Part shown: positions 72 through 17,861 of the stretch, piece by piece
How positions within the stretch are numbered: position 1 is the stretch's first letter
Layout of the letters: each line of letters opens with the position of its first letter
From: a virus
Lineage: Duplodnaviria; Heunggongvirae; Uroviricota; Caudoviricetes
Direction: 5' to 3' (one strand)
Length of the DNA stretch: 17,861 nt
Virus record (IMG/VR): IMGVR_UViG_3300021387_000285
The notes under the pieces: generated by a model
Told to the model about the DNA's origin: nothing
Seen by the model: only the letters and a program-made list of their open reading frames with translations
Databases searched by the model: none
Made by a program: the position numbers and the translations under genes

Positions 72-107
72 AAAAAAAAAGAGAGTAGGTAAAACCTACC
101 TACTCTC
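72..107 (-). terminator. Rho-independent terminator
   Basis: Perfect 10-bp inverted repeat GAGAGTAGGT (81-90) / ACCTACTCTC (98-107) with a 7-nt loop, followed on the minus strand by T9 (A9 at 72-80). It overlaps the TGA stop of the 106..714 gene. Confidence 0.85.
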
Positions 108-714
108 ACGCATCTATCCAATAGATAGAAAGATTCTTTTGTATCTATTCAAGCTGGGCCAATTTCTAAATAAAATCATTATTAACTAAAATATCTTGTG
201 CGCTAATTGTATTATAGTTATGATTGGCGCCATTTTTAGTTGCCCAACCAACTAATACTCTAGTTTTTGCCACCAAAGTATTTAATTCATATAATAATTC
301 TCCAGAGGTGGGATTAACTCTAAAAAACTTAAAGGAGAACTAAACTGAACCACCATATTTTGTTACAGGACTTTGAATATCCCAAGCAAAAATCATTTTA
401 CCAGTTTTGCTTACTACATCAAAGTAAGGAATAACATAGTAATACTCTTCATTTTTTGCATTACGAAATTCAACGATTCCAATACAAGTAGATAAATCCA
501 CAGAGTCATAAAATCTATCCATTTCAAAATAGATTAACTCTGCTTCATGGTCAGCTTCTACACCAAGAAAACTTGGTGTAGAAATGACCCTTGAATTTAA
601 ATTAATTTCATATACTGGTTCATCAGTTGGTATTCTCATTCTTATACTAGGAGGATTATATGACTCAGCAATAGACGCTAAGAATCTTTGATATTCTTCA
701 CTACCAGTAACCAT
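106..714 (-). CDS. 202-aa BppU N-terminal-like (upper baseplate-type) protein, read with TAG=Gln
   Basis: ATG 712-714 with RBS AGGGGG at 723-728. Code-11 ORF 340..714 continues through TAG at 340, 166 and 145 to TGA at 106-108 (...KYGGSV*FSFKFFRVNPTSGELLYELNTLVAKTRVLVGW...DFI*KLAQLE*IQKNLSIYWIDA). The GVEADHEAELIYFEMDRFYDSVDLS...IFAWDI...G.VQF...F pattern resembles BppU_N-type domains. Clear paralog of part of 739..3054. Confidence 0.8.
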
Positions 715-738
715 ATCTTATACCCCCTGTTAGAATTA

Positions 739-3054
739 TTATACAAGAACTGCTTTAAATACGTCAGTATAACCGATACGAAGAGTTCCGTGATAACGAT
801 TTTCTGTACGAATACGATAAATACCAGAATCTTTATTAATTACAAAGGTATATGCGCCATCTGGATGGTCTGCATCAACATAAGTAGCATCAAAGAGAAC
901 TTCAATTTCATCTGGATCTGGATTGGTCTCAGCATAAGAAAGCTTCCATTCACCAGTAGCAGGATCTTTGTAAACTTCTTCAACATAGTAAGAAGTGATT
1001 GCATCTGCATACTTATTAGCAGCTTCAGTCTTATCATCAATAACGAATAAACGTTCTGGATAAGTGTTATTTAATTCAATTGCGCGACCTTCTTCATTAG
1101 AGCCTTCAGGACGAGCACCTTCTTCAAGCATATAAACTTTATCAGTACCATCAATAGTACTAATATCAAGTTTAGTAATCTTTGGAGCAATGAAAGAAGT
1201 TACGATACTTTCAGAAGGTTCAGAGACATTATAAGTATGGTTGCGGCGGTTGATTGCACGCACACGATACTCGCCTTCTTCAGTAACGCCAGCAGCATTA
1301 ACTTGTTTTTCTCCACTTTCTGGGAGAATCTCAAATGTATAATCGCCTGCAAGAATATCTTCTTCTGTTAAGTCGCTAATCTACTCATTCTTTAAAACCT
1401 CAACAGCAACAGCGCCGAGTGGTTCATCATTAGAGCTACTAACAACAGCTTTAATCACAGGAGGAACACTAGCAGAAATATACTTATAATTGGTTTCTTC
1501 AATAACTTCATAGTCATCTTCATAAGCAGTATCAACAACTAAAGAAACATTTGGTTTAGCAGCAGGAGGCACTAAGCAAACATTACTTTCAATTTCGTTA
1601 CTAGTGGTCTTAATATAAGTACCATTAGGACGAACAGCAATCTTTTCAGCCTGTGCTTTTACTTGATATCTGCCAGCCTTAAGAGCATTGTAAGAAGAGC
1701 CTAATTCATAAACTTCAACTGTTGGGTCATCAAATGCTTCTTGAATAGCATCACCAGCAAGAGGAGTTGTGTTAATAGTGCCATCATCATTTTTTACATA
1801 ATAGACAGACTTATCATTTGGCTCTGTATCAGTAGTAACAAAATAATCACTTGGCTTAGTAATAATTTCAGCAGGCTGAACGACAGCAGGAATACCATCT
1901 TCAACAGCAGAATACCAAGTATATTTCATATCAACAAGACCAGGAGCATAGGCTTGAGTGATAATTGGTAATGTTTCTGCTTCAACACCTTGAGCGTCCA
2001 TAACAAAGTTAAGTTTTGCAGGAAGTCCAAGAGGTTTGTTTTCTTCATCAAGAACACCTAATTGCCACTCTGGGTCAGCAATAGGAGTAACTCCATCAGG
2101 ATTGTAAGCACTATTAGAAAGACGTGCTAAAGCAGCTGCGGCCACGCTCTTAACCTTTGTTGGGTCTTCTAAAGTTAAACCTTCATTAATTGCTAAGGTA
2201 GCAGTTTGAGTGTTAAAGCTATAGTTGATAAGGTCATTATCAGTATCATAGCAAGTAACTGCAAACTGAAGAGTACCTTTAACAGGTGTCATTTCATTGG
2301 TGATAAAGAAACCAAATACGACATAACCTGGCTCTAACTCATCATCTTTTGCAAAAGCAACTTGAGTCTGAGTTTCTTCATATGCGGGAACACGAGAACC
2401 ATTAGGAGTAAAGTTCCAGTTAATGGCAATCTTAGTTTCCATAAAGTCTTGATGGTCAAAATATCTATCAATCTTAAAGACAATTAATTCAGCCTCATGG
2501 TCTCCTTGTACGCCAACACCATATTTCTTGAAATGTGCAGGAATATTGATAACTCTTGTATTAGCATCAATTTCAAAATAAGGTTCATCAGCAGGAGTAA
2601 CGAGAAGGAACTTACCATCTTCAAATTTAGAAGTCTGTAAAGCAGCAATTGCTTTTAAATTACCAAAATAACTTTCAATAGAATCAATAACAATGCCAAC
2701 TTCTTTTGCTTTAGCAACAGCGGCATCAGCAACATCGCTTGCTAACTCAATACCAGCTTCAATATTTGCGGCACTTAAGTCGCCTCCATTAGCTGTAGAG
2801 TTTTCATATAAAACAGAAGTAAAAGCATCAACTAAAACTTCTTTGGAAATGCTTCTTACTTTTTGTTCAGATACAACAGATTGAAAATATGCTTTTATAT
2901 TAGCACTACCACCAAGCTCATCTACTTTACTTCCAATAGCAGAAACAATTTCACCACGAACAGTAGGTTCAGAAACTGCTAAAGCATTAGTGATTTGTTC
3001 AAATCTAGGAGCAAAAAGTTCTATATCATTAGCAGAAGTGATTTTTGTAATCAT
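739..3054 (-). CDS. 771-aa structural protein: BppU_N-like domain plus C-terminal Ig-like repeats, read with TAG=Gln
   Basis: ORFs 1381..3054 and 739..1263 are in frame and joined by one TAG at 1381 (VLKNE*ISDLTEEDILAGDYTFEILPESGEKQVNAAGVTEEGEYRVRAINRRN). Ends with TAA at 739-741. RBS-like AAAGGAAG upstream of the ATG. BppU-like region about 2170-2700. Three G-x-Y-x-[VI]-x-[AT] motifs (KAGRYQVKA, EEGEYRVRAIN, DSGIYRIRTEN) resemble Ig-like F strands. Confidence 0.8.
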
Positions 3055-3086
3055 AGATTCTTTCTCTTCCTTTCTATCATATTTTG

Positions 3087-3113
3087 AGAGGGAGAAAAAG
3101 TTTTTCTCCCTCT
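3087..3113. promoter_or_regulatory. Intergenic stem-loop (terminator-like or 5' leader hairpin)
   Basis: AGAGGGAGAAAAA-G-TTTTTCTCCCTCT perfect inverted repeat. A T-rich tail follows on the plus strand (TTTATTTA) but not on the coding minus strand, so its role in minus-strand transcription is unclear. Confidence 0.6.
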
Positions 3114-3156
3114 TTATTTATTAAAATAATTGTAATTTAAATAATCTTAATTGGCC
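3112..3156 (-). promoter_or_regulatory. Candidate promoter-like motif upstream of 739..3054
   Basis: Minus strand GGCCAATTAAGATTATTTAAATTACAATTATTTTAATAAATAAAG aligns without gaps to the copies at 26-71 and 10459-10504. Overlaps the stop of the 67-aa gene. Confidence 0.3.
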
Positions 3157-3350
3157 GGAACTTCCCACCAATTTCCAATTTCCTCTTCTGGAACACGGAC
3201 TGATTGTTTTCTCTCAATTCCATCGGTTAAGACTTTATCTTTGTCAGCAGTTAATAAAACTATTCTAACATAATAAATATCTTCTAAATGGACTGGAGAC
3301 TCAATAACTCCATTAGTTCCAAGATATCTGTAAAAAACCTATCTTTTCAT
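3147..3350 (-). CDS. 67-aa small protein (possible tail-fibre assembly/accessory factor); absent from the code-11 ORF track
   Basis: RBS GGAGG (3358-3362), ATG 3348-3350, TAG at codon 4, TAA 3147-3149. MKR*VFYRYLGTNGVIESPVHLEDIYYVRIVLLTADKDKVLTDGIERKQSVRVPEEEIGNWWEVPAN. It fills the gap right after the giant gene. Function inferred from position only. Confidence 0.8.
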
Positions 3351-3368
3351 TTATTAGCCTCCAATCTA

Positions 3369-6300
3369 TTAACCTGTTGCCTCAATAGTATCAATAGAAC
3401 CACAAGACAATTTATTAGTAATCGTGTCAGAATCTAAGCCCATAATTGGATTGTAATAGAATGTCACAGGAACAGGAGTGGTAGATACTAATAACTATCC
3501 ATAACCGGAACCTTGGAAGATACCAGTGCCCCATTGACCTGGGTCTAAAGTGAATGGGTCATCAACATTACCAAATCTTACGCTGCGAATTAACGTACTA
3601 CTGAAAGCACGGTTACTTAATTCAACTACATTCCCTGGTAATCTTAATTCTTTATCATGTAAGAATGTATCAGTAGCAAAATTAGGAGAGGTCTGCGCGA
3701 AGGCATTCTCACCATATGCAGTGATTCTACCAAAGAAATTATCAACATCTTCTTGAGTTATCTTATCGCTCTTAAATAAATTAGTGCATCCTGAGAAGCC
3801 ATGATAAGGGACTGTGAAGTTATTTACTGGGATTTCAAAATACATTAAGTTAGGATATACTTTACCAGCGAAACAACTCTAACTAAGAGTATTGACTTTA
3901 CTTCCACGTTCCCAGAAGATATGAGTTACACCAGGCTATTCAATACCTGCAGTAGCAAATATTAACACATCTTGACCGTTATATTGTGCAGGAAGCGTAA
4001 TTTTACCCGTTAATCCTGCTTTTGCAACAGATAATGTTTGAGATATTGGACTAAAGTTAAACCAACTCATATCTGTCATAACGTTATCGTGGACATCTGC
4101 TTCTACGAATGTAGCATACAGATTTAAATCACGAAGAACAATAGCAGGAGGAGCTTGAGTTACTTCAGTAGTATCTTCTGAATTCATTGAATATCCATTA
4201 AACTTATAAGTTCTTGTTAATGCTAAATCTGAATCATCTTTATAAGGCATTATACTTGGGCCAACTAATGCTGTATTATAAGGAACTTTAACAGGTGCGC
4301 CACCTATTAACTCATCACCAACATAATAGTAAACATTATGCTCATGAATTTTAAATTGTGCATACAACACTAAAACGTTCTATGACATAGTATAAGTGAA
4401 TGCTGCTAATTCAGTTTCAGCATTTGGATATGTTCTATTTTCAAAGTCATAATTTAAGAACATATTATTACCTGCAATATCAGTACTCCAACCAATAAAG
4501 TCATAGTGAGCCTTTGAAGGAACAACTGTTGTTAATACAGGATGCTCAACAGTACTTGCTAAACGGATAACACTTAATTCATTTTCACGACCATCATCAG
4601 TAGCTTGAACATATTTTACAATATTAGATTCTCTAACATATTTTGCAAAGATAGTTAATTCAGGCCATTTTTCTGCATAAACACTAGTTAAAGTATCTTC
4701 TTGAATTGGAGTTTGTTCAGTATTTTCAACATAAATAACACCAGTTAATCTTGGTAAAGCAGCAGTGCTACTTTCCATATTAGTATAGTGATTTAAGTGA
4801 GTTGTAGTTGCTAAACCATTTTCATAGTCCTAAAGGAAGAAATCTAATAAGTCTAATGATGTAATAATTTCTTGGTCTGGTGAGTATTCATAAGTATAAA
4901 TCTTACCATTCAACAATAATTGCTGCCAAGTATTTTCATCATAAGTATAAGGAACAAATGTACTATGGTCAGTAACCTGATAATAATTAGTATTAGAATC
5001 ATACTCATCATAAACACTTAATTGAGTATATGGACACCAATCAATATTTTCAAGGTTAATCTTTAATCTTGTGCCGGAAGCAGCTATTTTTTCTTTTGCG
5101 ACAATTGCTTTACGTAATAACTTATAAGAATCATATTTTAAGTTACCACCAACAATCTTAATGTTTATTAAACTAGAAGCACTTTCAACATTACCTAAGT
5201 TCTTCCAAGTTAATTGTCCATCTTGATTCTCTAAAGTAACTGCGCTATCATCAACATCAGTAATGCCTTCTAAGTACAATCCTTCATAAGATTCATGCGG
5301 ATAGAAAGCAGAACCCTCAGCAATACTTTTTCTAATCTTAGGAGTAGAAGTGAGTATATGAGTTAAGTTTTTAGCTTCAACTAAACCAATACCATTAACA
5401 GTCTTTGGTAAATGAACTGTATCTAATGGAGCACCTTCAGCAAACACAACACCTTGAATAATAGTGCCGAGCGCACGGAACTCTTGTAACTTTTCAGAAC
5501 CAGAAACATCAATAGCATAATTCAATTGAGTCATATTTGTAAGAATAACTTTTTGTAATAAAGTTTTTCTATTTACATTTAAACTACTACCGTCTTGAGT
5601 CTTTAAACTATCGTTCAAGATAAAGTTAGCCATACTACGTCCATTGTAGTATCCTTCAATATCACTACCAAGAGTCAAATCAAGTAATCTCTTTGCACTT
5701 GGAATCTAGAATTGGTCAAAGTATTTTGTACTTAAATCACCTAAACTAGAAATGTATGAAGGACCTGGGATACGAGTAATCTGTTGTGATAAGTTAGGAG
5801 TCTTTTTAAATCCATCCAAAATTGATTCAGATACATAAGCCTAAACAGGTTCACCCTAGAACTTAACAGAACGCCCTGAAGGAATCTTATCAATAAATGT
5901 GAAAACATATTGTTTTAAGAAAGGCGTAATCGTATATTCTGGGATAGCATCTAAATATTCAACAGGATATGGAGCTAAACTACTACCAGCATTTGCATTA
6001 GAAGGTAATTCACTTAAGGAATTAGAATCTAAGAATAAGTCAGAAGTCTGACCTGCGTTAGCATTTGCACGAACAATAACACAACCATCATCACCAGAAA
6101 CAACTTCAGTAGAATAGTCACCAGCTCTCCAATAGGAGTCAAGATAGTTAAGTCTATTTCTAATTAAAAGTTCACGAGATAACATACGGTCACCATTGAT
6201 AGCATAAACATAACCATAGCTATCTGGAACAACTTCACCTTTAGTATTATAATAACCAGCAACAGATGGTTTTAAATACTTAACATATTCATCTAAACCA

Positions 6301-9300
6301 ATAGCAATAACAGGTCTTACACCGCGCATTGCATAAGAATCAAATACGCTAGGGTCACATAAGTAAGCACCTTCAACATTTGTTTCAGTTAATTTAGAAG
6401 CACGAAGTTCTTTATATGTGTTAATAATCTTTGTCTCATAAGTGGCTGCGAAGTTAACCCATAAAATACTAGAAGGAGTAGAGAATGTACCATCTTTACT
6501 TGCATCAGTATCATAGTCCCAAAGAGTAGCACCGATATTATTCAAGCCTAATTGAGTATCAATATCATAGAAAATAGGATACCAAATATAGTCTCCACCT
6601 ACTTCTTTTGGTCCCCAAGTAGCTAACATCACATTTTTACCACGAGAGTCATAACATAATAACAATTCAGTTAAAACATAATAAATAGCACAATAGTCAA
6701 CATTAAAGTGCTTTGGTAATTCTGTTCTGAACTTTGCTAAACGATATGCAGGAGTATCTTTATAATAAGTTGCAGAATAAATACCATTGTTTTCAGTATA
6801 AGTGATTTCACCTGGAATATTTTCTCCACCTGCGCTGACCACAACTGGGCCATAAGGAGCTGCTAAAGCTTCATTAGTAGCTTTTGCAGTATTAGTAGAA
6901 TCTAACCAAGTAGTAACAGCTTCTAAGTTTCTGTATTTATCTCTTAAATACTGATTGATTTGTCCAAAAGTACCTAATTCTTCTGGATATGCTTGTACAT
7001 CATAATCATAGCAAGCATCAAGTTCATCACCATAGGCGCTATATCTATATTCAAAGTGGTTAATCACTTCTAACTTTGGTTCTGCTACTGGATTACCATT
7101 AGCATCATAACTATCTTTTTCATAGGTGCCAAAGTAATAGTCATTACGGCCAGGCACATTTTTATTCTTTTCAGCATCACTAGGATACGTGAAGGAAGTC
7201 CAAGTACCTTGGTTATCACAAAGTTCCCAACATTCAGCGATATCAGCAATTGCAGGATGTGTGCCATCTTCTAATGTAATATATTTCTGTTCGCCTTCAA
7301 CTTCAAAACCAAAATATTCATTAGAACCTTTATCTAAGTTCATATTATATCTACCGATATACTCATAGATTTCATCTTCATAAGAAGTACCAATCTTTTG
7401 TTTATCGCTAGGTTTGCTGTGTTGATGAAAAACAAGAAGTGGGAATCCATAAACACTAGTACGAAGACCAGCAGTAGAAACACCATCAAAGTTATAATCA
7501 TTTAATGGATGATAATCATACATTTTACCCATTAAGTTAGCAAAACCAGTATTGTAAGTTCCAGAAGATTCCATAAAGTCAATCTTCCAAGTGAACTTAT
7601 TAGTAGCAGCATAGTTACTATCAACACTCCACTTTTTAAAGCGTTGACCAGCTTTAGAACCTTTACTATAGAACCAACCCCAATCATCATGGGTAACTTT
7701 TTCAGCATCTTTCTTACCAGTAGCACTCTTCATTTTGGTCTTAAAGTTACGACGAGGATAACCTTGTGAAGAAGTACCCTGAACGTTAATATCTGCGCCA
7801 ATACATACATAGCTAGGGCAATGACTATAATAAGTTTCCTCATTTATCATACCAAACTCTAATAAAGCATCTGCAACAGCATTAACAAATGTAATCTTAC
7901 AATAACGATTACCATCTTTAACATATGGTAAACGGTCATCATCAGTACGTCTCTATGTCTTAGTTGGGTCGCGCATTGAAGTATCATTATCAATAATTTC
8001 AATGACCGCATAAGGCATCATTAAAGCATTAAAATCTTCTTCAAGTAATACTTGACCTTGATTTCTACGAGTTTCTAAGTTAGAAATAATTAAATCATTA
8101 TATGCTTTAATTTTACCTAATGATAAAGCAGTTGCATCATCATCTTTAGTTAATTGGTTCTGGTCATAAAGAGTTAAATCATGAATATCAGAAATATAGT
8201 TATGAATAACTTCTGGCATTGTTAAAGGTTTGATATTTGTACCTCTATAAACACGAAGTTTATAAATATCAAAGTCACAATACTTAGAGTTAATTTCAAA
8301 CTTATTAGTATTAGGAGTAAATCCATTATTACCAATACTAACAGCACCACTTAAGATACCATTCAAGTAAAGTGATAATAATCCACCTGCTTCTGCAGTA
8401 ATGGTTAAACTAATAATTTCATCTTCTTTATAACGCACGTTAACTGTAGTATCAGGAGTTTTGAAATATGCTTCTTGAGTACCTACGAATAAACCTTGCT
8501 TAGTCTGTTCATCATAATACTTAAAGCAAACGCCTTTTTCATGCTCAGTAATCTTTGGAGAATTAGCTTCATCCATAATCCAGTTACCATCTTTATCAGT
8601 GGCAATTGTTAATCCTTGTGCCTTAATATCTTCAATATACATGGAGTTCTCCATTTGGACTCCATTCTCATCAAGAACAAAGTAATATGGTAAAGTTTTA
8701 ACCAATGTAGAATACTCTTGAATATTCTTTACTCTAAATCTTAATTCAATAGTATAAGATTGATTCTAAGTATTAAAGCCCATGGTTGTGAAGTTAATGT
8801 CTGCCGAAGCACCATTAGCAACAGATAAATAGGAACCTGCTCCATCATTATCATTTTTCCAACCATTGTTATACCAGTTGAAATCTTTAAAAGTAGTAGT
8901 GGTTATAATTTCATCTTCATAATTATAACCCCAAGCAGCTCTCTTTGCGGCAGACTCTTCATTAGAACGGCCAGCAGAAGAAAGGTTTAAAATCAATGCG
9001 CCAGAATCAACAAGACCTAAGTCTCTTGACCCTTCTGTAGTAACATTAAAATTAATTTCTTTATTTTCAGTTCCACACTGAATAAGGAAACGGTTTGCGC
9101 CAACATGGTAGCTTTCAGTTAAGTCCCAAGTTAACCAATCAATAGAACTAGAAGAATATTGTGGATAAACTGTAGCAATTTCTTCATTAAGAATACTATC
9201 AATTAACTGAACTTCAGCTCTTGAACCAGTAGCAACTTTAGCTGGGTCATAAACCATATATTTAATAACGCATTTCTCATATTGAATAACAGTATCAGCA

Positions 9301-10379
9301 TATTCTTGCACCCAAATCAATGGAGTTGATTCATTAGGGTCTGCCCATGCTAATTCATAACTGATTTCATCACTATAAACAACGTTACCTCTAATTGCGG
9401 CACCAAGTTTCAAAGAAATAGTATGAACGCCATGAGGTTGAGCTGGAATACGCACTGAGCGCACTGTAGTGCCTGGATTAACACTTGCTACTAAGTTATC
9501 TGCTAATATACCATCAATAGAAGGATAAATAGTTAATGCTAAACTATTACCACCTTTAATAAAGTAGTTAACGGTAGCTGCGCCATTTAAAACTGTATTT
9601 GTTAATTGTGAATTATCTTTTGCAATACCTAATTCAACAATATTTAATCCAGTAAATTGTTTTCTAAAACCAGTAGGGTGGGATAAGCTATTTGGAGAAA
9701 TTAAAGTTACAGTCATTAACAGGTTTTCCCCAGAAGGGATTTGACCCATATTAAACTTATAGACTTTATTAACTGGCACTCCAATTGCCTAAGTCTCAAA
9801 AACTTTTTCATTAGTTGTAGCATTTACAACTTCAAATAATAAATTAACATAATTATCATATTCGGCTTTTGGAGTAAACTCTGCATCAGAATCTTGCCCA
9901 TAAACAAAAGTCATATAAGAATTAATAGTATTGGTATTGAAATCTAAAGCTACATCAGTCCTTGATGGACTTTCTCCGCCGCCTCCACCACCACCAGAGC
10001 CTCCTCCGGTTCCGCTTACTGCAAGTAACACAGCTTGGATTTCTTGAGACGCTGGGTCGGCTGATAATACTCTGAAAAATCTGCCATCAGCATTTAATAT
10101 AAGAGTATCTGGTTTTAATGTGACAGTAGTATCTTCTAAAGCAGCATATTTGATAGTATAATGGTAATCCGTATCATCAGGTGAGTTTTTAATAATTGTA
10201 TTTACATTACCTGCGGTATAAGCAATGCCAGATGCGCCACCACCAATGGTATAGCGCGTTCCTTGCTTATCAAGGTAAATATTACCGCTATCATAAGCAA
10301 AATAGACATAACCTTCACGGATTGGTAACTAACTAATTGCGCTTTCCGTACCTCTTACAGGTTGAAATATTTCTGCCAT
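3369..10379 (-). CDS. Giant 2336-aa multidomain tail-associated protein with CotH kinase-like, LamG-like, LRR, InlB B-repeat-like and BspA-LRR-like regions, read with TAG=Gln
   Basis: Eight code-11 ORFs (3495, 3936, 4380, 4830, 5856, 7953, 8766, 9789) share one frame. All gaps were hand-translated and contain no TAA/TGA. 12 TAGs, at 10329, 9789, 8766, 7953, 5856, 5841, 5706, 4830, 4380, 3936, 3879 and 3495. Start MAEIFQPVRGTESAIS*LPIREGYVYFAYDSGNIYLD with RBS AGAAAGGAG (10388-10396); stop TAA 3369-3371. The single ORF is firm; domain calls are by motif inspection. Confidence 0.88.
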
Positions 10380-10413
10380 TATATATACTCCTTTCTCCAA
10401 TTAATATAATAAA

Positions 10414-10447
10414 AATAAGGGTAAGGAATATATACCTTACCCTTATT
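10414..10447 (-). terminator. Terminator-like hairpin between the 560-aa fibre gene and the giant gene
   Basis: 13-bp perfect inverted repeat AATAAGGGTAAGG (10414-10426) / CCTTACCCTTATT (10435-10447), 8-nt loop. On the minus strand it runs into TTTTTATTAT. It lies 17 nt upstream of the giant gene RBS. Confidence 0.65.
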
Positions 10448-10458
10448 AAATATTCCTT

Positions 10459-10504
10459 CAATGGAATATAAAAATCAAAAGAAATCAGTTAACCAATTCT
10501 GTCC
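10459..10504 (-). promoter_or_regulatory. Candidate promoter-like motif upstream of the giant gene
   Basis: Minus strand GGACAGAATTGGTTAACTGATTTCTTTTGATTTTTATATTCCATTG; same GG[AC]C...TA...TTTT..TA spacing as the two other intergenic copies. Confidence 0.35.
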
Positions 10505-10509
10505 TTTAA

Positions 10510-12192
10510 TTAGAAGCTACCCCATACTAAATCAATATTGACAGAGTAAGTGTTGCTACCAGATTCAAGAGCAGGAGTTGTAACTTCTAAGTTGCTGGAA
10601 GAGATTTTGAAATTACCAGTTGAAGAAGCATTATCACTATCTTGAACAGTAATTGCAACTGTTGCTGTACCACCAGCGCTAGAATCAGTAGAACTATTAG
10701 CAGCGGTATTGATACCAACAATTACATTTTCAATGTTAGCATGGCTATCATTTAATACATAATTTTTTGCGCTAACAGCAGTAACGTGGCCTGCGGCATC
10801 CTTAGAAATACTTGTTACTACTGGAATAGTAACTTGTTTCTTGCTTGCGCTTTGAGTAGTATCAACATCAGCAGCTTCAACTGTAATAGCAGTGCCAGTG
10901 CCGGCAGCCCCGTGAGCAACTGTTAATGTATTATAACCACTAGAAATACTAGGAGTAACAGAAATAGTACCATAAGTATTAGAGCTACCATTTACTCCAA
11001 TACCAGCAATAACGCCAGCACCATCAGAAATAGTAATACCATTACCCTCGGCCGCACCAGTAATAGTCTGCTCATCGCCAGAAGGAACAACTTCCCATTC
11101 TACGTTACCATCAATGCCAGAAGCAATGATTAAGTCACCGGTCTTTGCAGTAACGCCATTAACATTATTGATGTTGCCTGCTGCTTTATAAGTTGTACCA
11201 ACTTTTGGACTTTCGCCTGCAACTTCAGTAGCGACTAATTTTGTAGCAGCTGTTGCTTGAGTAATAGTACCAGCATACTCCATAGCGTCAAAGCCTTTTA
11301 ACTCTGCAGCAATCTTATCATCAACTTGACCTTTAGTATAAACATCAAGTTGAGCAGTGCCACTAGCAAAAGCAGCGGTAGTGCTGTAACCAGTACCATA
11401 AGCAATAATAGGAGTTACAGCATCACTATTAATGTCTGTAGAGACACCTTCAAGTGTTGTAATGAAAGCACCATTAGGACCAAAAGCATTACTTACACCT
11501 TTGATACCCTGTGCGCCAGAAGCTGTACCAATAGTGATTGTACCAGCATCATTGCTAGTAACAGCCATACCAGGGCCAGCAGCAATAGTAATATTCTGCT
11601 TTGCACCAGTAGAAGGAGTTAAACTAATAACACCTGAGGTAGCATCTGCAGTAGTACCAAGAGTATAAGTTGTATTATCATTATCATTCTGAGACTCAAT
11701 AGTAATTGTATTGCCACTGCGAGAAACAGTTACATTATTACCACCTTGGATTGAGAAGTTACCAGAAGCGCTATTGGTTGCAGTATCAGAAACTGCCATA
11801 GCGATAGTAACTGTACCAGAACTATCAGAAACATTAATAGCATTATTGCTTGCGCTTAATTTAGTATCTGGGTTTAACTGTACCCAAGTACCTGCGGTTG
11901 GATTTTTGCAAATTGCTAATACATTCTGATTTTCCCAATAGTACATATCACCAGCTTGAAGATTTTCATATCCAGAAGTACCACTATTAGGAAGGTCACT
12001 TAAACTTGCTAAAGCTTTAATTCTAATATATTGGTTAAGGTCAACAAGCTTATCAGCAGCCTGTGCAAAATATAATCTATTAGTATCATTAGTTAAATAA
12101 AAAGTACCCTCAGTAAATCTATTACCGCTACCATTTAATAAAGTATTAATACTGGATTGAGAGCCTCTTTTAAAGTTTACCTTTACACTCAT
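10510..12192 (-). CDS. 560-aa tail fibre / receptor-binding-like protein
   Basis: Intact ORF, no TAG, TAA stop, RBS AGAAAGGGG (12201-12209). Mtd_N-like start (VNFKRGSQSSI...EGTFYLTNDTNRLYF). Rich in Gly/Thr/Ser/Ala/Asn, consistent with a beta-rich fibre. Contains fibre-like motifs DVYTKGQVDDKI...AMEYAGTI and VVTSISKDAAGHVTAV; ends LVWGSF. Confidence 0.75.
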   Translation of the reverse strand: MSVKVNFKRGSQSSINTLLNGSGNRFTEGTFYLTNDTNRLYFAQAADKLVDLNQYIRIKALASLSDLPNSGTSGYENLQAGDMYYWENQNVLAICKNPTAGTWVQLNPDTKLSASNNAINVSDSSGTVTIAMAVSDTATNSASGNFSIQGGNNVTVSRSGNTITIESQNDNDNTTYTLGTTADATSGVISLTPSTGAKQNITIAAGPGMAVTSNDAGTITIGTASGAQGIKGVSNAFGPNGAFITTLEGVSTDINSDAVTPIIAYGTGYSTTAAFASGTAQLDVYTKGQVDDKIAAELKGFDAMEYAGTITQATAATKLVATEVAGESPKVGTTYKAAGNINNVNGVTAKTGDLIIASGIDGNVEWEVVPSGDEQTITGAAEGNGITISDGAGVIAGIGVNGSSNTYGTISVTPSISSGYNTLTVAHGAAGTGTAITVEAADVDTTQSASKKQVTIPVVTSISKDAAGHVTAVSAKNYVLNDSHANIENVIVGINTAANSSTDSSAGGTATVAITVQDSDNASSTGNFKISSSNLEVTTPALESGSNTYSVNIDLVWGSF

Positions 12193-12209
12193 TATTTTTT
12201 CCCCTTTCT

Positions 12210-13193
12210 TTATTCACCAGAAGTAATTTCATTCCAAATTAACCGAGCATAAACATCAGCTAATTCATCTGCGATAGTAGAAGTATTATCACCTGTAACG
12301 GCACGTAAATTATTAATATCTCCTACTTCGTTATTAAACTTAGAGAGAAGAACATAATTACTTTGAAGATTATTTGTGATTAAGCCATCAATTTCATCTT
12401 GTCTAACATAATCACTTAAATTAACACTCCATTTTCCTAATTTTTCAAAATTAGAATTAACATACATATATTCATCATATTTATTACTGGTATCTTCAGA
12501 GCCATTAGGAACTAAAAATACTGTACTATTGATATTCTCAACAGTAGTATCTAAATTTTCCAATGTTTCATCTGGACCTAATACTTGATATGATAAATGA
12601 TTATTATTTAAAACATCTTGTCTAATTGCTTGGACTTCAGACTTTAAACTTGATACATCAGTCTCTAATGTATCAATTCTGTCTAATACACTTTGACTTG
12701 TTAAAGATGCCCAATTTGACCCAGTATAAGCATAAGGCTCACCACTAACAATAGCGATATCACCTTGAACAGGATTACTTACTATACGGTCAAGAGCTTG
12801 AGAAATACTTTCTCCATCATTTTTTGTTCCAGCAATTACTCTATCATTACTAGAACTACTGCTACCACCTGGAGTAAATCCAGCATTTTCTAAAGCAGTT
12901 ACAATTGAAATAGGCTTCCAAGTTTGGCTTTCTATTTCATAATGAAGTAACATCCCATCAGCTAAAGTAGCATCTGATAAATCCACATCTGCTAAGTCAT
13001 TTAAATTCGTAACAGATGAAAAACCAGTACCACCAATTAAACGAGACCCTAAATAAAGCAAACCGCCTTCTTCAGGAGCATTTTGTCTTTCATATACAAA
13101 ATACAAAGTATTTTCGTCTAAATTACCCGCAGTCTTACGTCTATCAAAAATAGACTTTAAACCACGTTCAAATTTAACAAAATTAACTGCCAT
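12210..13193 (-). CDS. 327-aa tail fibre/adaptor-like protein
   Basis: Intact ORF, no TAG, TAA stop, RBS GGAGAAAGGG (13200-13209). Mtd_N-like start (VKFERGLKSIF...ENTLYFVYE...LLYLG), LNDLADVD...DGMLLHYE...W tail-repeat-like motif, heptad segment LDRIDTLETDVSSLKSEVQAIRQDV, and VFLVP...NKYDEYMYVNSNFEKLG..VNLSDY motif that I recognise from Firmicutes phage fibres. Confidence 0.7.
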   Translation of the reverse strand: MAVNFVKFERGLKSIFDRRKTAGNLDENTLYFVYERQNAPEEGGLLYLGSRLIGGTGFSSVTNLNDLADVDLSDATLADGMLLHYEIESQTWKPISIVTALENAGFTPGGSSSSSNDRVIAGTKNDGESISQALDRIVSNPVQGDIAIVSGEPYAYTGSNWASLTSQSVLDRIDTLETDVSSLKSEVQAIRQDVLNNNHLSYQVLGPDETLENLDTTVENINSTVFLVPNGSEDTSNKYDEYMYVNSNFEKLGKWSVNLSDYVRQDEIDGLITNNLQSNYVLLSKFNNEVGDINNLRAVTGDNTSTIADELADVYARLIWNEITSGE

Positions 13194-13260
13194 CTTTTAC
13201 CCTTTCTCCTTCCTCTAAAAGTTTTTTATCCATTATTATTCATTTTTTTAAGTATATGGA

Positions 13261-14505
13261 TTAACTTAAATTGTCTATGAGTTTCCAAGCATCAAAGTCA
13301 ATATAACAATGAGAAGGTGTAATCGCCGTAGTCTTAACAGTAGCACCAGTAGAATCTGTTGTTGTAGTAGCATAAGCATAACCTACTGTTTCTGGTTTAT
13401 GGTCAATAAAAGCAGCATTAGAGTTCTCATTATAAGTTGTTGTCCAATCACATTGCAGATAATATCTAACTTTACCACTTAATGGGTCTGGATAGGTATA
13501 TAAGCTACGTAATAATCCAGTTAAGCCTTCTGTATTATTAGCTAAAAAACCTCCAATGCTAGGAACTGAAGATAACCAAGATTCGTCATCTGTATCAATA
13601 GTTAAATCAGAGCCATTTAATGCGCTAGCTGCTTCCCAATACTTTTTAAAGAATGGGCGCACATTAGTTCCATCATTACCAGGCACACCATATAATAAGT
13701 CATAAAGTTCTGACATAACATTACCAAAAGCAGGTAAATTAATGACTAACTTTTTCTTATTAACTAATTTTGAGTCTCCTGACTAATCTACATCTTCTGC
13801 GGCAAGCCCTTCTGGAATCCAATGAATATAAGAATGATAATCATTAGTTCTTTTGCCTACATTATAAACAACATTAAATCCATTACGATTATAATTAATA
13901 TCTTGCTCATCTGCAGCTAATTCAACAGACCTTGGCATCTTTAAGAAGTAAGAAGATTCAGTGCTCTTGGCTTCATCAAATGCAGGTTGAACATAGTCAA
14001 CCTGCACTCTAGGAAGTAATACTGGAATAGTCTCGCCGTTCTATTCCTTTAAAACATACACTTCTTCTGCATCAGCAGCATTGTCAGCATATTTATATAA
14101 TAAAGGCTCATTAATATCAATTTCAAATCTTGGGGCCATTGCATTTAATTCAGCAATCATAATATACTTTTCACCTTCGGTTAAAGTATAAATCTTTTGC
14201 CAAACTGTTGAATCATAAACGGCACCAAATGCTTCAAGGTCTTCATTTAAGCTTTGAGAATATTCCTCTGTCTATTGGATATAGTAATAAACCTATCCAT
14301 CTTGAACCATTGTCATATCCCCGCCACCAGGAGCTTGTTTCTTTTCATAACGAATACCATTATTGCCATAATTTATCAATACATAGCGACCAATATAAAC
14401 TCCATCAGTGGCGCATTGTGCTTCCATTTCAACTCTTGATTTATATTCTCTATCAAACTGAAATTGACTAGTACCAACTCGTTTTACATTTCCATATAAA
14501 CTCAT
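13261..14505 (-). CDS. 414-aa hypothetical tail/baseplate protein, read with TAG=Gln
   Basis: ORFs 14293..14505, 13783..14007 and 13261..13716 are in frame; TAGs at 14293, 14272, 14041 and 13783; no other stops; TAA at 13261-13263. RBS GGGGAGGG. ATG overlaps the upstream stop (TAATG). Bridging text includes AVYDSTVWQKIY...KYIMIAELNAMAPRFEI and INLPAFGNVMSELYDLLYG. Confidence 0.8.
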
Positions 14506-14873
14506 TATGTACCCTCCCCGCCATATACTAAATCAACAATTAAATAACCATTTGGTAAATCATTAATTGTCTACATACTTTCTGGGTCAATTCTAATACT
14601 ATTTAAAATAGCAGTAGTATTAGTTAAATCTAATTCATAAACACCAGAAGACCCAATAATAACAGGTGTAGTGCTTTGATTAAAATAAACTTTTGTCCCA
14701 GGTAAAGTTTGGATACCTAACTAATAAATAGGAGCAAAATATCTAAAACTTGTGTCATCACAATAGTATTTATAACTAACTCCACTTGGTGCATTATTTG
14801 GATTTGATATAATGTTTCCGGCAGAGTCAGCTTCGGCATTATAAAATCTTAACTATTTTATTTTTGTTGCCAT
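14505..14873 (-). CDS. 122-aa hypothetical structural protein; absent from the code-11 ORF track
   Basis: RBS AAGGAGG (14884-14890), ATG 14871-14873, TAGs at 14853, 14721 and 14571, TAA 14505-14507. MATKIK*LRFYNAEADSAGNIISNPNNAPSGVSYKYYCDDTSFRYFAPIY*LGIQTLPGTKVYFNQSTTPVIIGSSGVYELDLTNTTAILNSIRIDPESM*TINDLPNGYLIVDLVYGGEGT. Confidence 0.82.
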
Positions 14874-14892
14874 TATTCCTTTTCCTCCTTTA

Positions 14893-17637
14893 TCAATATA
14901 CACGTTCAGGCACTTTTACTGCCGTAATCTACATTGTTCCATTATACTTTAATGGAATAGTGCATTTATTTAAAATATAGTAACCATTAACCGTTCTCTA
15001 CTCATCTTTTGCCGAAATAATTGTATTAGGCTCTAAATAATAAATAGGAATTGATGTTAATGTTACATTTTCATTACAATAACCATAACTATATAATAAA
15101 TTATCAATTTCATCATGCGCTGATACACTACGAGTTGATATAGATAATTTATTATCATCAAAATACTGCTAGAAATCATCACTAACAATATAGCTATATC
15201 CAGATGGTAACTAATTAGCCGTGTATGAATCATACATCTCTTTAGTTATCAAAACGACATCTGGAACATCTTCATAAATTATAACTCTTATGGTATCTTT
15301 ATTAACAACTTTAGGCCGGTCACCAATAGCTGGGACAGAGAATGAACCTATACCTAAACTTTCAGCATCAAAGAAATCAAACCAAAAGATTAGTGCTGAA
15401 GGGTCATCAATAATATCTTTATTCCATCCATCTTCATTATATACCTCTTCCTCTAAACCTAATGGATTTTTATCCCAGTTATAAACATTCTCTGGTGCAT
15501 ATAATTGTCGCCAGAAACCATGTAAATCATGATAATACTATTCATAACCTGTTTTACCATTCTAAAACTAGTCAATATCAAACTCTGGGATATGATTATT
15601 TTGATGAATATTAACATAAAAGTCATCTTCATGATTATGTAATAAATAATCATTTGCCATTTGATAAATAATTTCACGCCAATCAACTTGGAAGAATCTA
15701 TATTTTCCATCATATTTTAATTCTTCATATATAGCTAAATCACCTGGTAAATGTGGTTTATATATCCAACTGTCAAGATTACAAAGAGTATCTAATTTCA
15801 TAAAATATTCATAAGTATGAGTACAACCTCTATAACCATGCTGTGTAGGATTCCATCTTTGAGATGCATAATATGGATAAATTGCTGGAACAGCTCCATA
15901 ATATAAATTGCCAGTCGCTTTTTCAATATCAAAAATAGACTAATTACGTAAATGAGTTGTAGTCCCATTTGGCGTAGTAATATCTCCAAAGAAACCAGCA
16001 GTACCATACTATCTTAATTGGCCTTCGGGATAAGAACCAACTAATGCTTTATAATATTCAGCCCAATCTAATACAGTCCACCATACTTCATCAGGATTTT
16101 CCCCTTGCGCTAAAGTAGCCTCACGTAACCACTAAGGCACAGGAGTTTTCTCAATTTCTTTTCCATTAACTTTAATGGTAGTTGAAGTATTCTCTTTTTC
16201 TTTCTTTTCAATTATAGGTGCTAAATATTCATCATAATACTCTTTAGTAGTATAAATCTCTTGATAATAGCTAAAGGTTCTTTCTTCATCTGATGCAGCA
16301 TTTGTCTTAATTGCTTTTTTAAATCCACCATAAAACTAAGGTTTAATATCAATAGCATAACGCATATGAATAGGATACTCTACTCCAGAAACAGGTAATC
16401 GTTTCTTCCCCCAAACCGTATAGTCATTTTTAATATCACCAATTTTTGGAGTATTCTAATAAGCAGTAGTTAAATTACTGCCTTCAAAACTATATTGAAC
16501 TAACTATGAAACAGCTGCAGGCTCAACATAAGTGTCATTATCTCCAAAAATTATATTATTCCAAGGAGTATTAACATAAGTCTTTTTTGCTTGAAATACA
16601 AATTGGCCCTCAATATTATAAAAATATTCATAAGCACCAAATATATTAATAATTTTATCTAAAACAGAAGTAACGGTTTCATTAATACCAGCTATCAAAT
16701 CTTCATCTGGGTAAGTTAATTCTCTAGCATAATAACCAATATCCTTCTAATCTTCAATAGCTAATACCACACATTTTACATAATCATCAATTTCTGGATT
16801 ATAATAACCAATATACGTAGGAACATCCACTTGTGTTGGGTCTAATAATCCAACATCATCTTCTTCTACTCTTTTGGCAAAGATAAAATCATTTTTTAAT
16901 TTTGTAAAATCAACGTCAATAGAAAAACCATAATATAAATAAGAATGATTAGCTACTGTTTTTCCTGGGTCTATAATATCAACATATTCGCCAGTGTCAA
17001 CTTCTTGAACTAAATATAAGGTATTACCAGTCCTATTTCTTAATATTTCAAGACCTAGCTAATCAATATCTTTAATAACAATATTCTCATAAGGTTCCTA
17101 AGCATAACGATGTATCATTTCACGAATAATGTATGGAATAGAACGTTTTTCTCGGCTATGAGTTCCATCTTCTTGTTCTACTTCTTCTGAACCTAAGACA
17201 GTTTCAGCATTAAAGTTTCCACTGATATCACCATTTAACAAACACATCTTATCTTTTCCACTTAAGGTAATAACATAGTTATTAACCTAAGAAGAAGTTT
17301 TAAAGTCTGTTAAAATATAAACTCCCATTGGAAACCAAATAATATCATCATATGCTGGATTAATTTGATTTAATAAACCAATTTCAATTTTAACACGAGT
17401 AGTAATACCCCAATAGACATTATTAATATTAAGATTTTTAGTTGTCATAGTTAACTAGCAAATGCGCCGCACACTAGAGGTTCCATCTAGAGTGATGGAA
17501 CCTCCTGTAGCAACGCCCTCTATCCGTTCTATTGGGTATTGGTCAAGTGTTAAAGAAGTAAGTCGTACGAAAGTTGTCCTATTACGATTATGGTCTAATT
17601 CGCGCAAAAATAAAGTATCAAGTAATGGATTTTGCAT
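14893..17637 (-). CDS. 914-aa probable baseplate hub / distal tail protein (tentatively DUF5047/DUF5048-like), read with TAG=Gln
   Basis: RBS AGAAAGGAG (17647-17655), ATG 17635-17637. One frame, open to TGA at 14893-14895 apart from 18 TAGs (17455, 17287, 17098, 17059, 16747, 16504, 16456, 16336, 16132, 16009, 15940, 15568, 15562, 15538, 15211, 15169, 14998, 14929). N-terminal GGSITLDGTSSVRRIC*L...WFPMGVY...LSGKDKMCLL and C-terminal IPIYYLEPNTII...GYYILNKCTIPL...GTM*ITA resemble phage hub proteins. The ORF is firm; the family call is from memory of motifs. Confidence 0.8.
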
Positions 17638-17861
17638 TAACCATATCTCCTTTCTACTTTATTTAAATAAGCTAATCCTAAAGCAAATAGATAAGTAGCA
17701 AGAGCATCTTTAATTTTATTAATATACGTTTCATTATCAAATTCAGTTGCAATATCTTGATTTGCTATTTTGCTTAATTCTTCAAGTTCTTCTTCTAATT
17801 CACTAATCTTCTTGGTAGCTATTTGAATTAAACCAAGATTATTTATATCATTATTATCATA
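17637..17861 (-). CDS. 3' end of an upstream gene (partial, 74 aa visible, helical/coiled-coil)
   Basis: Frame is open from the window edge: YDNNDINNLGLIQIATKKISELEEELEELSKIANQDIATEFDNETYINKIKDALATYLFALGLAYLNKVERRYG, then TAA at 17637-17639 overlapping the next ATG (TAATG). Confidence 0.75.
   Translation of the reverse strand, partial: YDNNDINNLGLIQIATKKISELEEELEELSKIANQDIATEFDNETYINKIKDALATYLFALGLAYLNKVERRYG

Follow-up and report, generated by a model that had tools for sequence, protein, structure and literature searches.

What does the triplet TAG mean in a block of phage genes whose reading frames are interrupted by TAG and by no other stop codon? The question is raised by a stretch of 17,861 nt from the virus record IMGVR_UViG_3300021387_000285 (hereafter the window; all coordinates are those of the whole window), in which all genes lie on the minus strand. 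The answer that we favour, with a probability of roughly 0.9, is that the window holds a late tail and baseplate operon of a phage of ~190 kb from the bovine gut that uses TAG as a glutamine codon, which would be read by a phage-encoded tRNA with the anticodon CUA, hereafter tRNA(CUA).

Under translation table 11, the minus strand breaks up into 20 in-frame pieces of at least 60 amino acids (aa) that cover 72.8% of the window, whereas with TAG taken as a sense codon, nine complete genes and one gene end that is open on its 5' side cover 97.4%. The 5804 codons counted include 42 in-frame TAGs (given by gene in the table below) and not a single TAA or TGA; at the ten gene ends, eight TAA and two TGA are found, and TAG at none. 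This restriction to TAG is not a matter of chance because, in two non-coding frames of the same strand, TAA (200-273 occurrences) and TGA (228-261) each outnumber TAG (93-137); with an assumed TAG share of ~0.2, the chance that all 42 interruptions would be TAG is ~1e-29. Purine-rich Shine-Dalgarno (SD) sites lie 5-12 nt upstream of all nine starts, two of which, those of the 2336-aa gene (10379) and of the 122-aa gene (14873), were set at an internal ATG with a strong site, and database gene calls concur. Furthermore, proteins of this gene block are present in a public protein collection, translated with TAG as glutamine. A first-pass annotation, made from the letters of the window, had claimed that about 20 fragments collapse into nine complete genes upon read-through of TAG, with 42 in-frame TAGs, no TAA or TGA in the gaps, eight TAA and two TGA at the gene ends and an SD site in front of each rebuilt gene; an independent count returned the same figures throughout, and the comparison of coding density that the annotation had proposed gave the increase reported above.

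Are these frames actually maintained across the TAGs? A near-identical strain from another study (98-99% identity; the locus L002 is identical to L003 over 12.7 kb, and the two were counted once) differs from the window, over six shared genes, by 167 synonymous and 33 non-synonymous codon changes. In the same comparison, 29 TAGs are kept, six are exchanged with CAA or CAG and none with any other codon, that is, TAG and the two glutamine codons replace one another as equivalents. The 25 standard-code homologues of the 914-aa protein on viral contigs contain no stop and can be aligned along its entire length, and two residues that are conserved in all close homologues, A906 and P910, are located after the last TAG. 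Purifying selection acts across the in-frame TAGs. Moreover, the sequence was met again in metagenome runs from gut and bovine gut that belong to at least eight studies dated 2013-2025, and independent contigs span the whole window at ~98.6% identity, so the TAGs are not the errors of one assembly, an outcome for which the first-pass annotation had allowed. The notion that the TAGs are real stops, in a decaying prophage, a pseudogenised region or a faulty assembly or sequence, draws on the fragmented look under table 11 and on nothing further, and its probability is close to nil given that the frames are interrupted by TAG only, that synonymous changes exceed non-synonymous ones 5 to 1 across TAG-containing frames, that TAGs are kept or swapped with glutamine codons in relatives, that full-length homologues are free of stops and that the sequence is found in many independent runs.

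Which amino acid, then, does TAG specify? Closer relatives, at 82%, 61%, 54%, 53% and 47% identity and all TAG-recoded themselves, were compared with the window by codon (six related loci in all comparisons), with likelihoods calibrated on sense-to-sense pairs from the same alignments. Opposite the TAGs of the window, the 82% relative shows TAG in 11 cases, glutamine in 8 and any other residue in two at most; opposite the TAGs of that relative, the window has glutamine 15 times. Over the five relatives, the log-likelihood for the window TAGs is -325.6 for glutamine, -385.1 for glutamate, -394.1 for lysine and -400.3 for serine, so that glutamine leads glutamate by ~60 and serine by ~75 units, and in the reverse direction, for the TAGs of the relatives, glutamine stands at -499.2 versus -601.7 for lysine. 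The sense codon most often found opposite a window TAG is CAA, and the glutamine partner codons are CAA in 20 cases and CAG in one, which points to selection for glutamine rather than to a one-step mutation bias from CAG to TAG. Within the 914-aa gene, one or more relatives have CAA or CAG at 11 of the 18 TAG sites.

Three observations pull in the other direction. The pooled likelihood reuses the same 42 sites and hence overstates their independence, a conservative figure being the lead of glutamine over lysine by 16 units in the best single comparison (82% identity); distant homologues of the standard-code or TGA type (35-40% identity), when used alone, rank serine above glutamine; and the 47% relative alone weakly favours serine. 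Could TAG, then, be a sense codon for another residue, such as serine, glutamate or lysine, decoded by a suppressor tRNA of a different identity? The serine signal of the distant homologues comes from some five columns of the 914-aa protein, 61, 117, 378, 394 and 903, where these homologues have serine and the likelihood places it first. At 117, 394 and 903, however, closer relatives carry CAA opposite the window TAG, and at 378 the near-identical strain, in which every exchange of TAG is with CAA or CAG, has CAG. Serine was rejected after this codon-level comparison; the columns in question are ancestral serine positions that turned into glutamine in this sub-lineage, and a residue other than glutamine is hardly credible in view of the pooled margins as well. 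The assignment of TAG to glutamine (code 15) in the window genes, at which the first-pass annotation had arrived, is thus well supported by the codons of related loci, and the TAG columns, for which the lack of any consistent residue had been envisaged, mostly show CAA or CAG. There is a more general lesson here, namely that distant standard-code homologues alone can mislead and that the codons of close relatives are the best guide to the meaning of a recoded codon.

To what kind of virus do these genes belong? A contig of 193,398 bp in ENA (ERZ1037986 scaffold_55) encodes a protein 99% identical to the 914-aa protein, and on this contig genes for a 3643-aa tape-measure protein and for 98-aa and 1865-aa proteins precede the genes of the window, which follow in the same order. 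The gene of which the window contains only the end has 1865 aa in the near-identical contig and sits between the tape measure and baseplate genes. The 914-aa protein is matched by PHROG 32343 and 1887 ('tail protein'), and the matches to PHROG profiles, one for a tail protein and those for two phage proteins of great length, extend across TAG sites; hundreds of relatives on viral contigs were found. Because of the tape measure upstream, the conserved gene order and the tail profiles, the window is the block of distal tail, baseplate and fibre genes of a large phage (~190 kb) of the bovine gut or rumen, and the phage origin that had been proposed from the letters is borne out by the same evidence and by the many viral relatives.

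The next question is how TAG would be read in such a phage. In an uninfected host with the standard code, release factor 1 (RF1) would truncate the products at the first TAG. During infection, a phage tRNA(CUA) that derives from tRNA-Gln and is charged by a host enzyme would, most likely, outcompete RF1 and read TAG as glutamine, with only TAA and TGA ending genes, and full-length tail proteins would be made only in the presence of this tRNA. The closest complete relative (G001; 239.6 kb, 47% identity in the baseplate protein, collinear tail block) is heavily TAG-recoded, with 75 and 84 TAGs in single genes, and has ~40 tRNA genes, one of them with the anticodon CUA (L044:1767-1841, plus strand, which is G001 201767-201841). 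Its nearest paralogue among the tRNAs of G001 is tRNA-Gln(CUG): D arm, anticodon stem-loop and 3' end are shared, with G73 and a CCA that is part of the gene, and on these sequence features the tRNA(CUA) is a derivative of tRNA-Gln. It departs from tRNA-Gln(CUG) by an additional base where the T stem joins the acceptor stem and by a C-U mismatch at pair 1:72. Altogether, tRNA(CUA) is found in four of the five complete TAG-using relatives, the three other than G001 carrying one or two such genes each, and a standard-code relative has no tRNA(CUA). The suppressor tRNAs of two relatives, G004 and G009, are 89-93 nt long, a length that implies an extra arm.

As to the remaining components of the decoding apparatus, no gene for a release factor and no gene for a glutamyl- or glutaminyl-tRNA synthetase was detected in G001, the only genome searched for the latter enzyme. 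The 188-kb complete TAG-using relative G009 encodes a release factor of 354 aa (L129:865-1929, plus strand, no TAG) that is assigned to release factor 2 (RF2) because it has the SPF tripeptide along with GGQ; the 17 other relatives screened, like G001, yielded no release-factor gene. The tRNA(CUA) gene of G001 is flanked by genes for a DUF2828 protein and a 369-aa protein, and homologue searches with these two proteins found no match on the 193-kb contig. A separate feature of the tRNA repertoire of these phages is that ARAGORN predicts intron-containing tRNA genes with introns from 62 to 374 nt (G001 199127-199283 and 203216-203678; G003 96840-96985; G015 64519-64811), two of which are backed by an Rfam tRNA match of 143-154 nt.

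Two findings tell against decoding by a phage suppressor tRNA. No tRNA is encoded within the window, so that the suppressor of this particular phage, together with the enzyme that would charge it, is what we infer from the relatives. In addition, one complete TAG-using relative, G003 (L130-L138; 174 kb, 100% complete according to CheckV), has 22 in-frame TAGs in its baseplate gene and only 9-10 tRNA genes, none of which shows a CUA anticodon with either ARAGORN or the Rfam tRNA model. It is conceivable, accordingly, that the present phage also lacks a recognisable tRNA(CUA) and that its essential TAGs, 42 or more, are decoded in a hitherto undescribed manner, for instance by a host tRNA that is modified, by a non-canonical tRNA or through the inactivation of RF1; or else the phage might belong to a lineage outside the named clades in which the code may have flipped several times among the standard, TAG and TGA types. 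Taken together, these variants are improbable.

With a tRNA(CUA) derived from tRNA-Gln as the preferred decoder, an instructive precedent is supE of Escherichia coli, an amber suppressor tRNA-Gln(CUA) that inserts glutamine at UAG, where suppression is partial and UAG still is a stop. The tRNA(CUA) of the closest relative G001 resembles supE in being a derivative of tRNA-Gln. The situation in the window is unlike that of supE in that dozens of essential codons depend on the decoding of UAG, and UAG never serves as a terminator.

Might TAG nevertheless be read through only in part, by leaky termination or weak suppression, such that the yield of full-length proteins is throttled and truncated products are made too? 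Two facts are in line with this view: the uneven share of TAG among glutamine codons, which ranges by gene from 0% to ~50-60% (chi-square p = 2e-5), and the existence of a complete TAG-using relative, G003, in which no suppressor tRNA is detectable. The unevenness is most conspicuous in the adjacent 560-aa and 327-aa genes (10510-13193), with no TAG among 27 glutamine codons (Fisher p = 0.0017 versus the rest). Yet the orthologues of the 327-aa gene in relatives have 4-8 TAGs (1-8 for the relative orthologues of both fibre-like genes overall), and the 560-aa gene has two in a 98% identical strain; because the TAG-free state is kept neither in relatives nor in this strain, it looks like a product of drift rather than of tuning, and drift is the simpler reading. 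Moreover, with 18 TAGs in the essential 914-aa gene, and with 75-84 in individual genes of G001, decoding has to be nearly complete, and most complete TAG-using relatives possess dedicated tRNA(CUA) genes, so that partial read-through appears very unlikely. An observation of a similar kind in G001 concerns two adjacent genes of 407 and 274 aa (103379-105448, minus strand) that are without TAG inside a TAG-dense structural block. Should these turn out to encode the major capsid protein and a partner of it, TAG would be avoided in the late genes with the highest expression.

How does this phage compare with recoded phages already known? The homologues of the 914-aa protein on viral contigs (L046-L124) amount to 68 distinct loci, of which 25 are without in-frame stops, 35 contain only TAG (2-33 each) and 8 only TGA (3-15 each); one protein family hence spans three genetic codes. 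Recoding of TAG to glutamine and of TGA to tryptophan has been described in eight clades of gut phages, four of which mix codes 11, 15 and 4, among them the large 'Agate' phages of cattle, pig and tortoise (Borges et al., 2022; bioRxiv 10.1101/2021.08.26.457843). In that work, suppressor tRNAs were detectable in only ~40% of the TAG genomes, RF2 was present in two TAG-recoded Agate genomes, and recoding was proposed to delay the translation of late genes (Borges et al., 10.1101/2021.08.26.457843), a timing role that may apply to the present operon as well. The likeness to the Agate clades extends to TAG at glutamine positions, recoded structural genes, genomes of 150-200 kb (here a 193-kb contig), animal guts including those of cattle (here bovine gut runs), a mixture of standard, TAG and TGA types among relatives, and suppressor tRNAs and RF2 in some of them only (here RF2 in one). 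This is a resemblance and not an assignment, given that the same traits occur in other clades and that membership is defined by a tree of the large terminase (at least 95% bootstrap).

Among GenBank records, the closest to the 914-aa protein by tblastn is phAss-1 (OQ749652), with 26.5% identity over 70% of the protein; a megablast search with the window found no match to any GenBank phage. In phAss-1, TAG is read as glutamine in tail and terminase genes, and the genome has suppressor tRNA genes and no synthetase of its own (PMC10607447). Clostridia-type hosts are suspected for phAss-1 and the proposed genus Phassvirus, the members of which share 83-86% nucleotide identity, and Enterococcus phage EF1 is said to belong to the wider group (Babkin et al., 2023; PMC10607447). 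At its N-terminus, the 914-aa protein is matched by Enterococcus phages of the EF1 type. The present phage differs from phAss-1 in the lack of nucleotide similarity, in size (~193 versus 136 kb) and in habitat (bovine versus human gut), and it does not belong to Phassvirus because there is no nucleotide match and the protein identity is 26.5%; it accords with the broader grouping that Babkin et al. sketched (PMC10607447). It may be mentioned that a single continuous match of the 914-aa protein in OQ749652 (33178-35376) runs over five separate features labelled 'hypothetical protein', which implies that the deposited annotation is still split by the standard code. For crAss-like phages, proteomic validation of TAG as glutamine has been reported, the only kind of direct peptide proof so far (Peters et al., 2022; PMC9523058); compared with the phages covered there, the code change, read here from sequence, is the same, and the lineage is unrelated.

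The features of the window are collected in the table.

Table. Features of the 17,861-nt window, from low to high coordinates; TAG counts are in-frame occurrences.
Feature	Coordinates	Strand	TAG	Stop	SD site	Remarks
Terminator-like hairpin + T run	81..107	-				end of gene block
202-aa protein	106..714	-	3	TGA		
771-aa protein	739..3054	-	1	TAA		no function assigned
67-aa open reading frame (ORF), putative	3147..3350	-	1	TAA	GGAGG	TAG is codon 4
2336-aa giant tail fibre or adhesin-like protein	3369..10379	-	12	TAA	AAAGGAG	
Terminator-like hairpin + T run	10414..10447	-				between 560-aa and 2336-aa genes
560-aa fibre-like protein	10510..12192	-	0			rich in Ser/Thr/Ala/Gly; highest G+C of block (0.39)
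327-aa fibre-like protein	12210..13193	-	0			
414-aa tail protein	13261..14505	-	4	TAA		no function assigned
122-aa protein	14505..14873	-	3	TAA	AAAGGAGG	no function assigned
914-aa baseplate or tail-hub-like protein	14893..17637	-	18	TGA	AAAGGAG	
3' end of large gene	17637..17861	-	0	TAA		74 codons

Searches of Pfam, NCBIfam and PDB sequences gave no name to any protein of the window, and matches to CK2 were discarded as artefacts that a run of glycines produces. For the 914-aa protein, AlphaFold gave a model of moderate to mediocre quality (predicted local distance difference test, pLDDT, of 66), and a Foldseek search with it returned nothing at E <0.001, only weak rows of the baseplate, hub or tube-like kind, a hint that the protein could be a baseplate hub or tube-like component. 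In the giant fibre, residues 1222-1343 (numbered on the ORF as first listed, 2343 aa; window ~6350-6720) give a weak match to the CotH kinase-like family of Pfam (E = 1.6e-4; 21.7 bits, under the cut-off of 23.8 bits), and PHROG 14959 matches strongly at the same region. Residues 154-285 of the 771-aa protein are paralogous to residues 29-149 of the 202-aa protein (33% identity, E = 3e-14), and the domain that these proteins have in common goes by no family name. Inspection by eye suggests that the giant fibre and the two shorter fibre-like proteins start with a similar motif at the N-terminus, hydrophobic-x-R-G ... G-x-x-Y-[FL] ... [IL]-Y, which may be a shared module for attachment to the baseplate.

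Beyond the proteins, an Rfam search of the window found no match, and a promoter scan did no better on the window than on shuffles. Small indel variants in other runs fall in the T-rich terminator-like hairpin between the 560-aa and 2336-aa genes (10430-10448), with one more at window position 9, below the block, and none are reported within genes. Contigs from an RNA library cover the window, which is no proof of transcription.

What does the recoding of this locus mean in practical and biological terms? Phages that read TAG as glutamine, and clades with the properties met here, have been published already, so that we are dealing with one more well-documented case and not with a new principle, albeit a case that includes flips of TAG to CAG at the population level and a protein family across three codes. 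The consequence is immediate: annotation by the standard code shreds the tail genes into ~20 fragments, including those for the 2336-aa fibre and the 914-aa baseplate protein, and any analysis of the host range or the receptors of this abundant phage of the cattle gut needs code 15.

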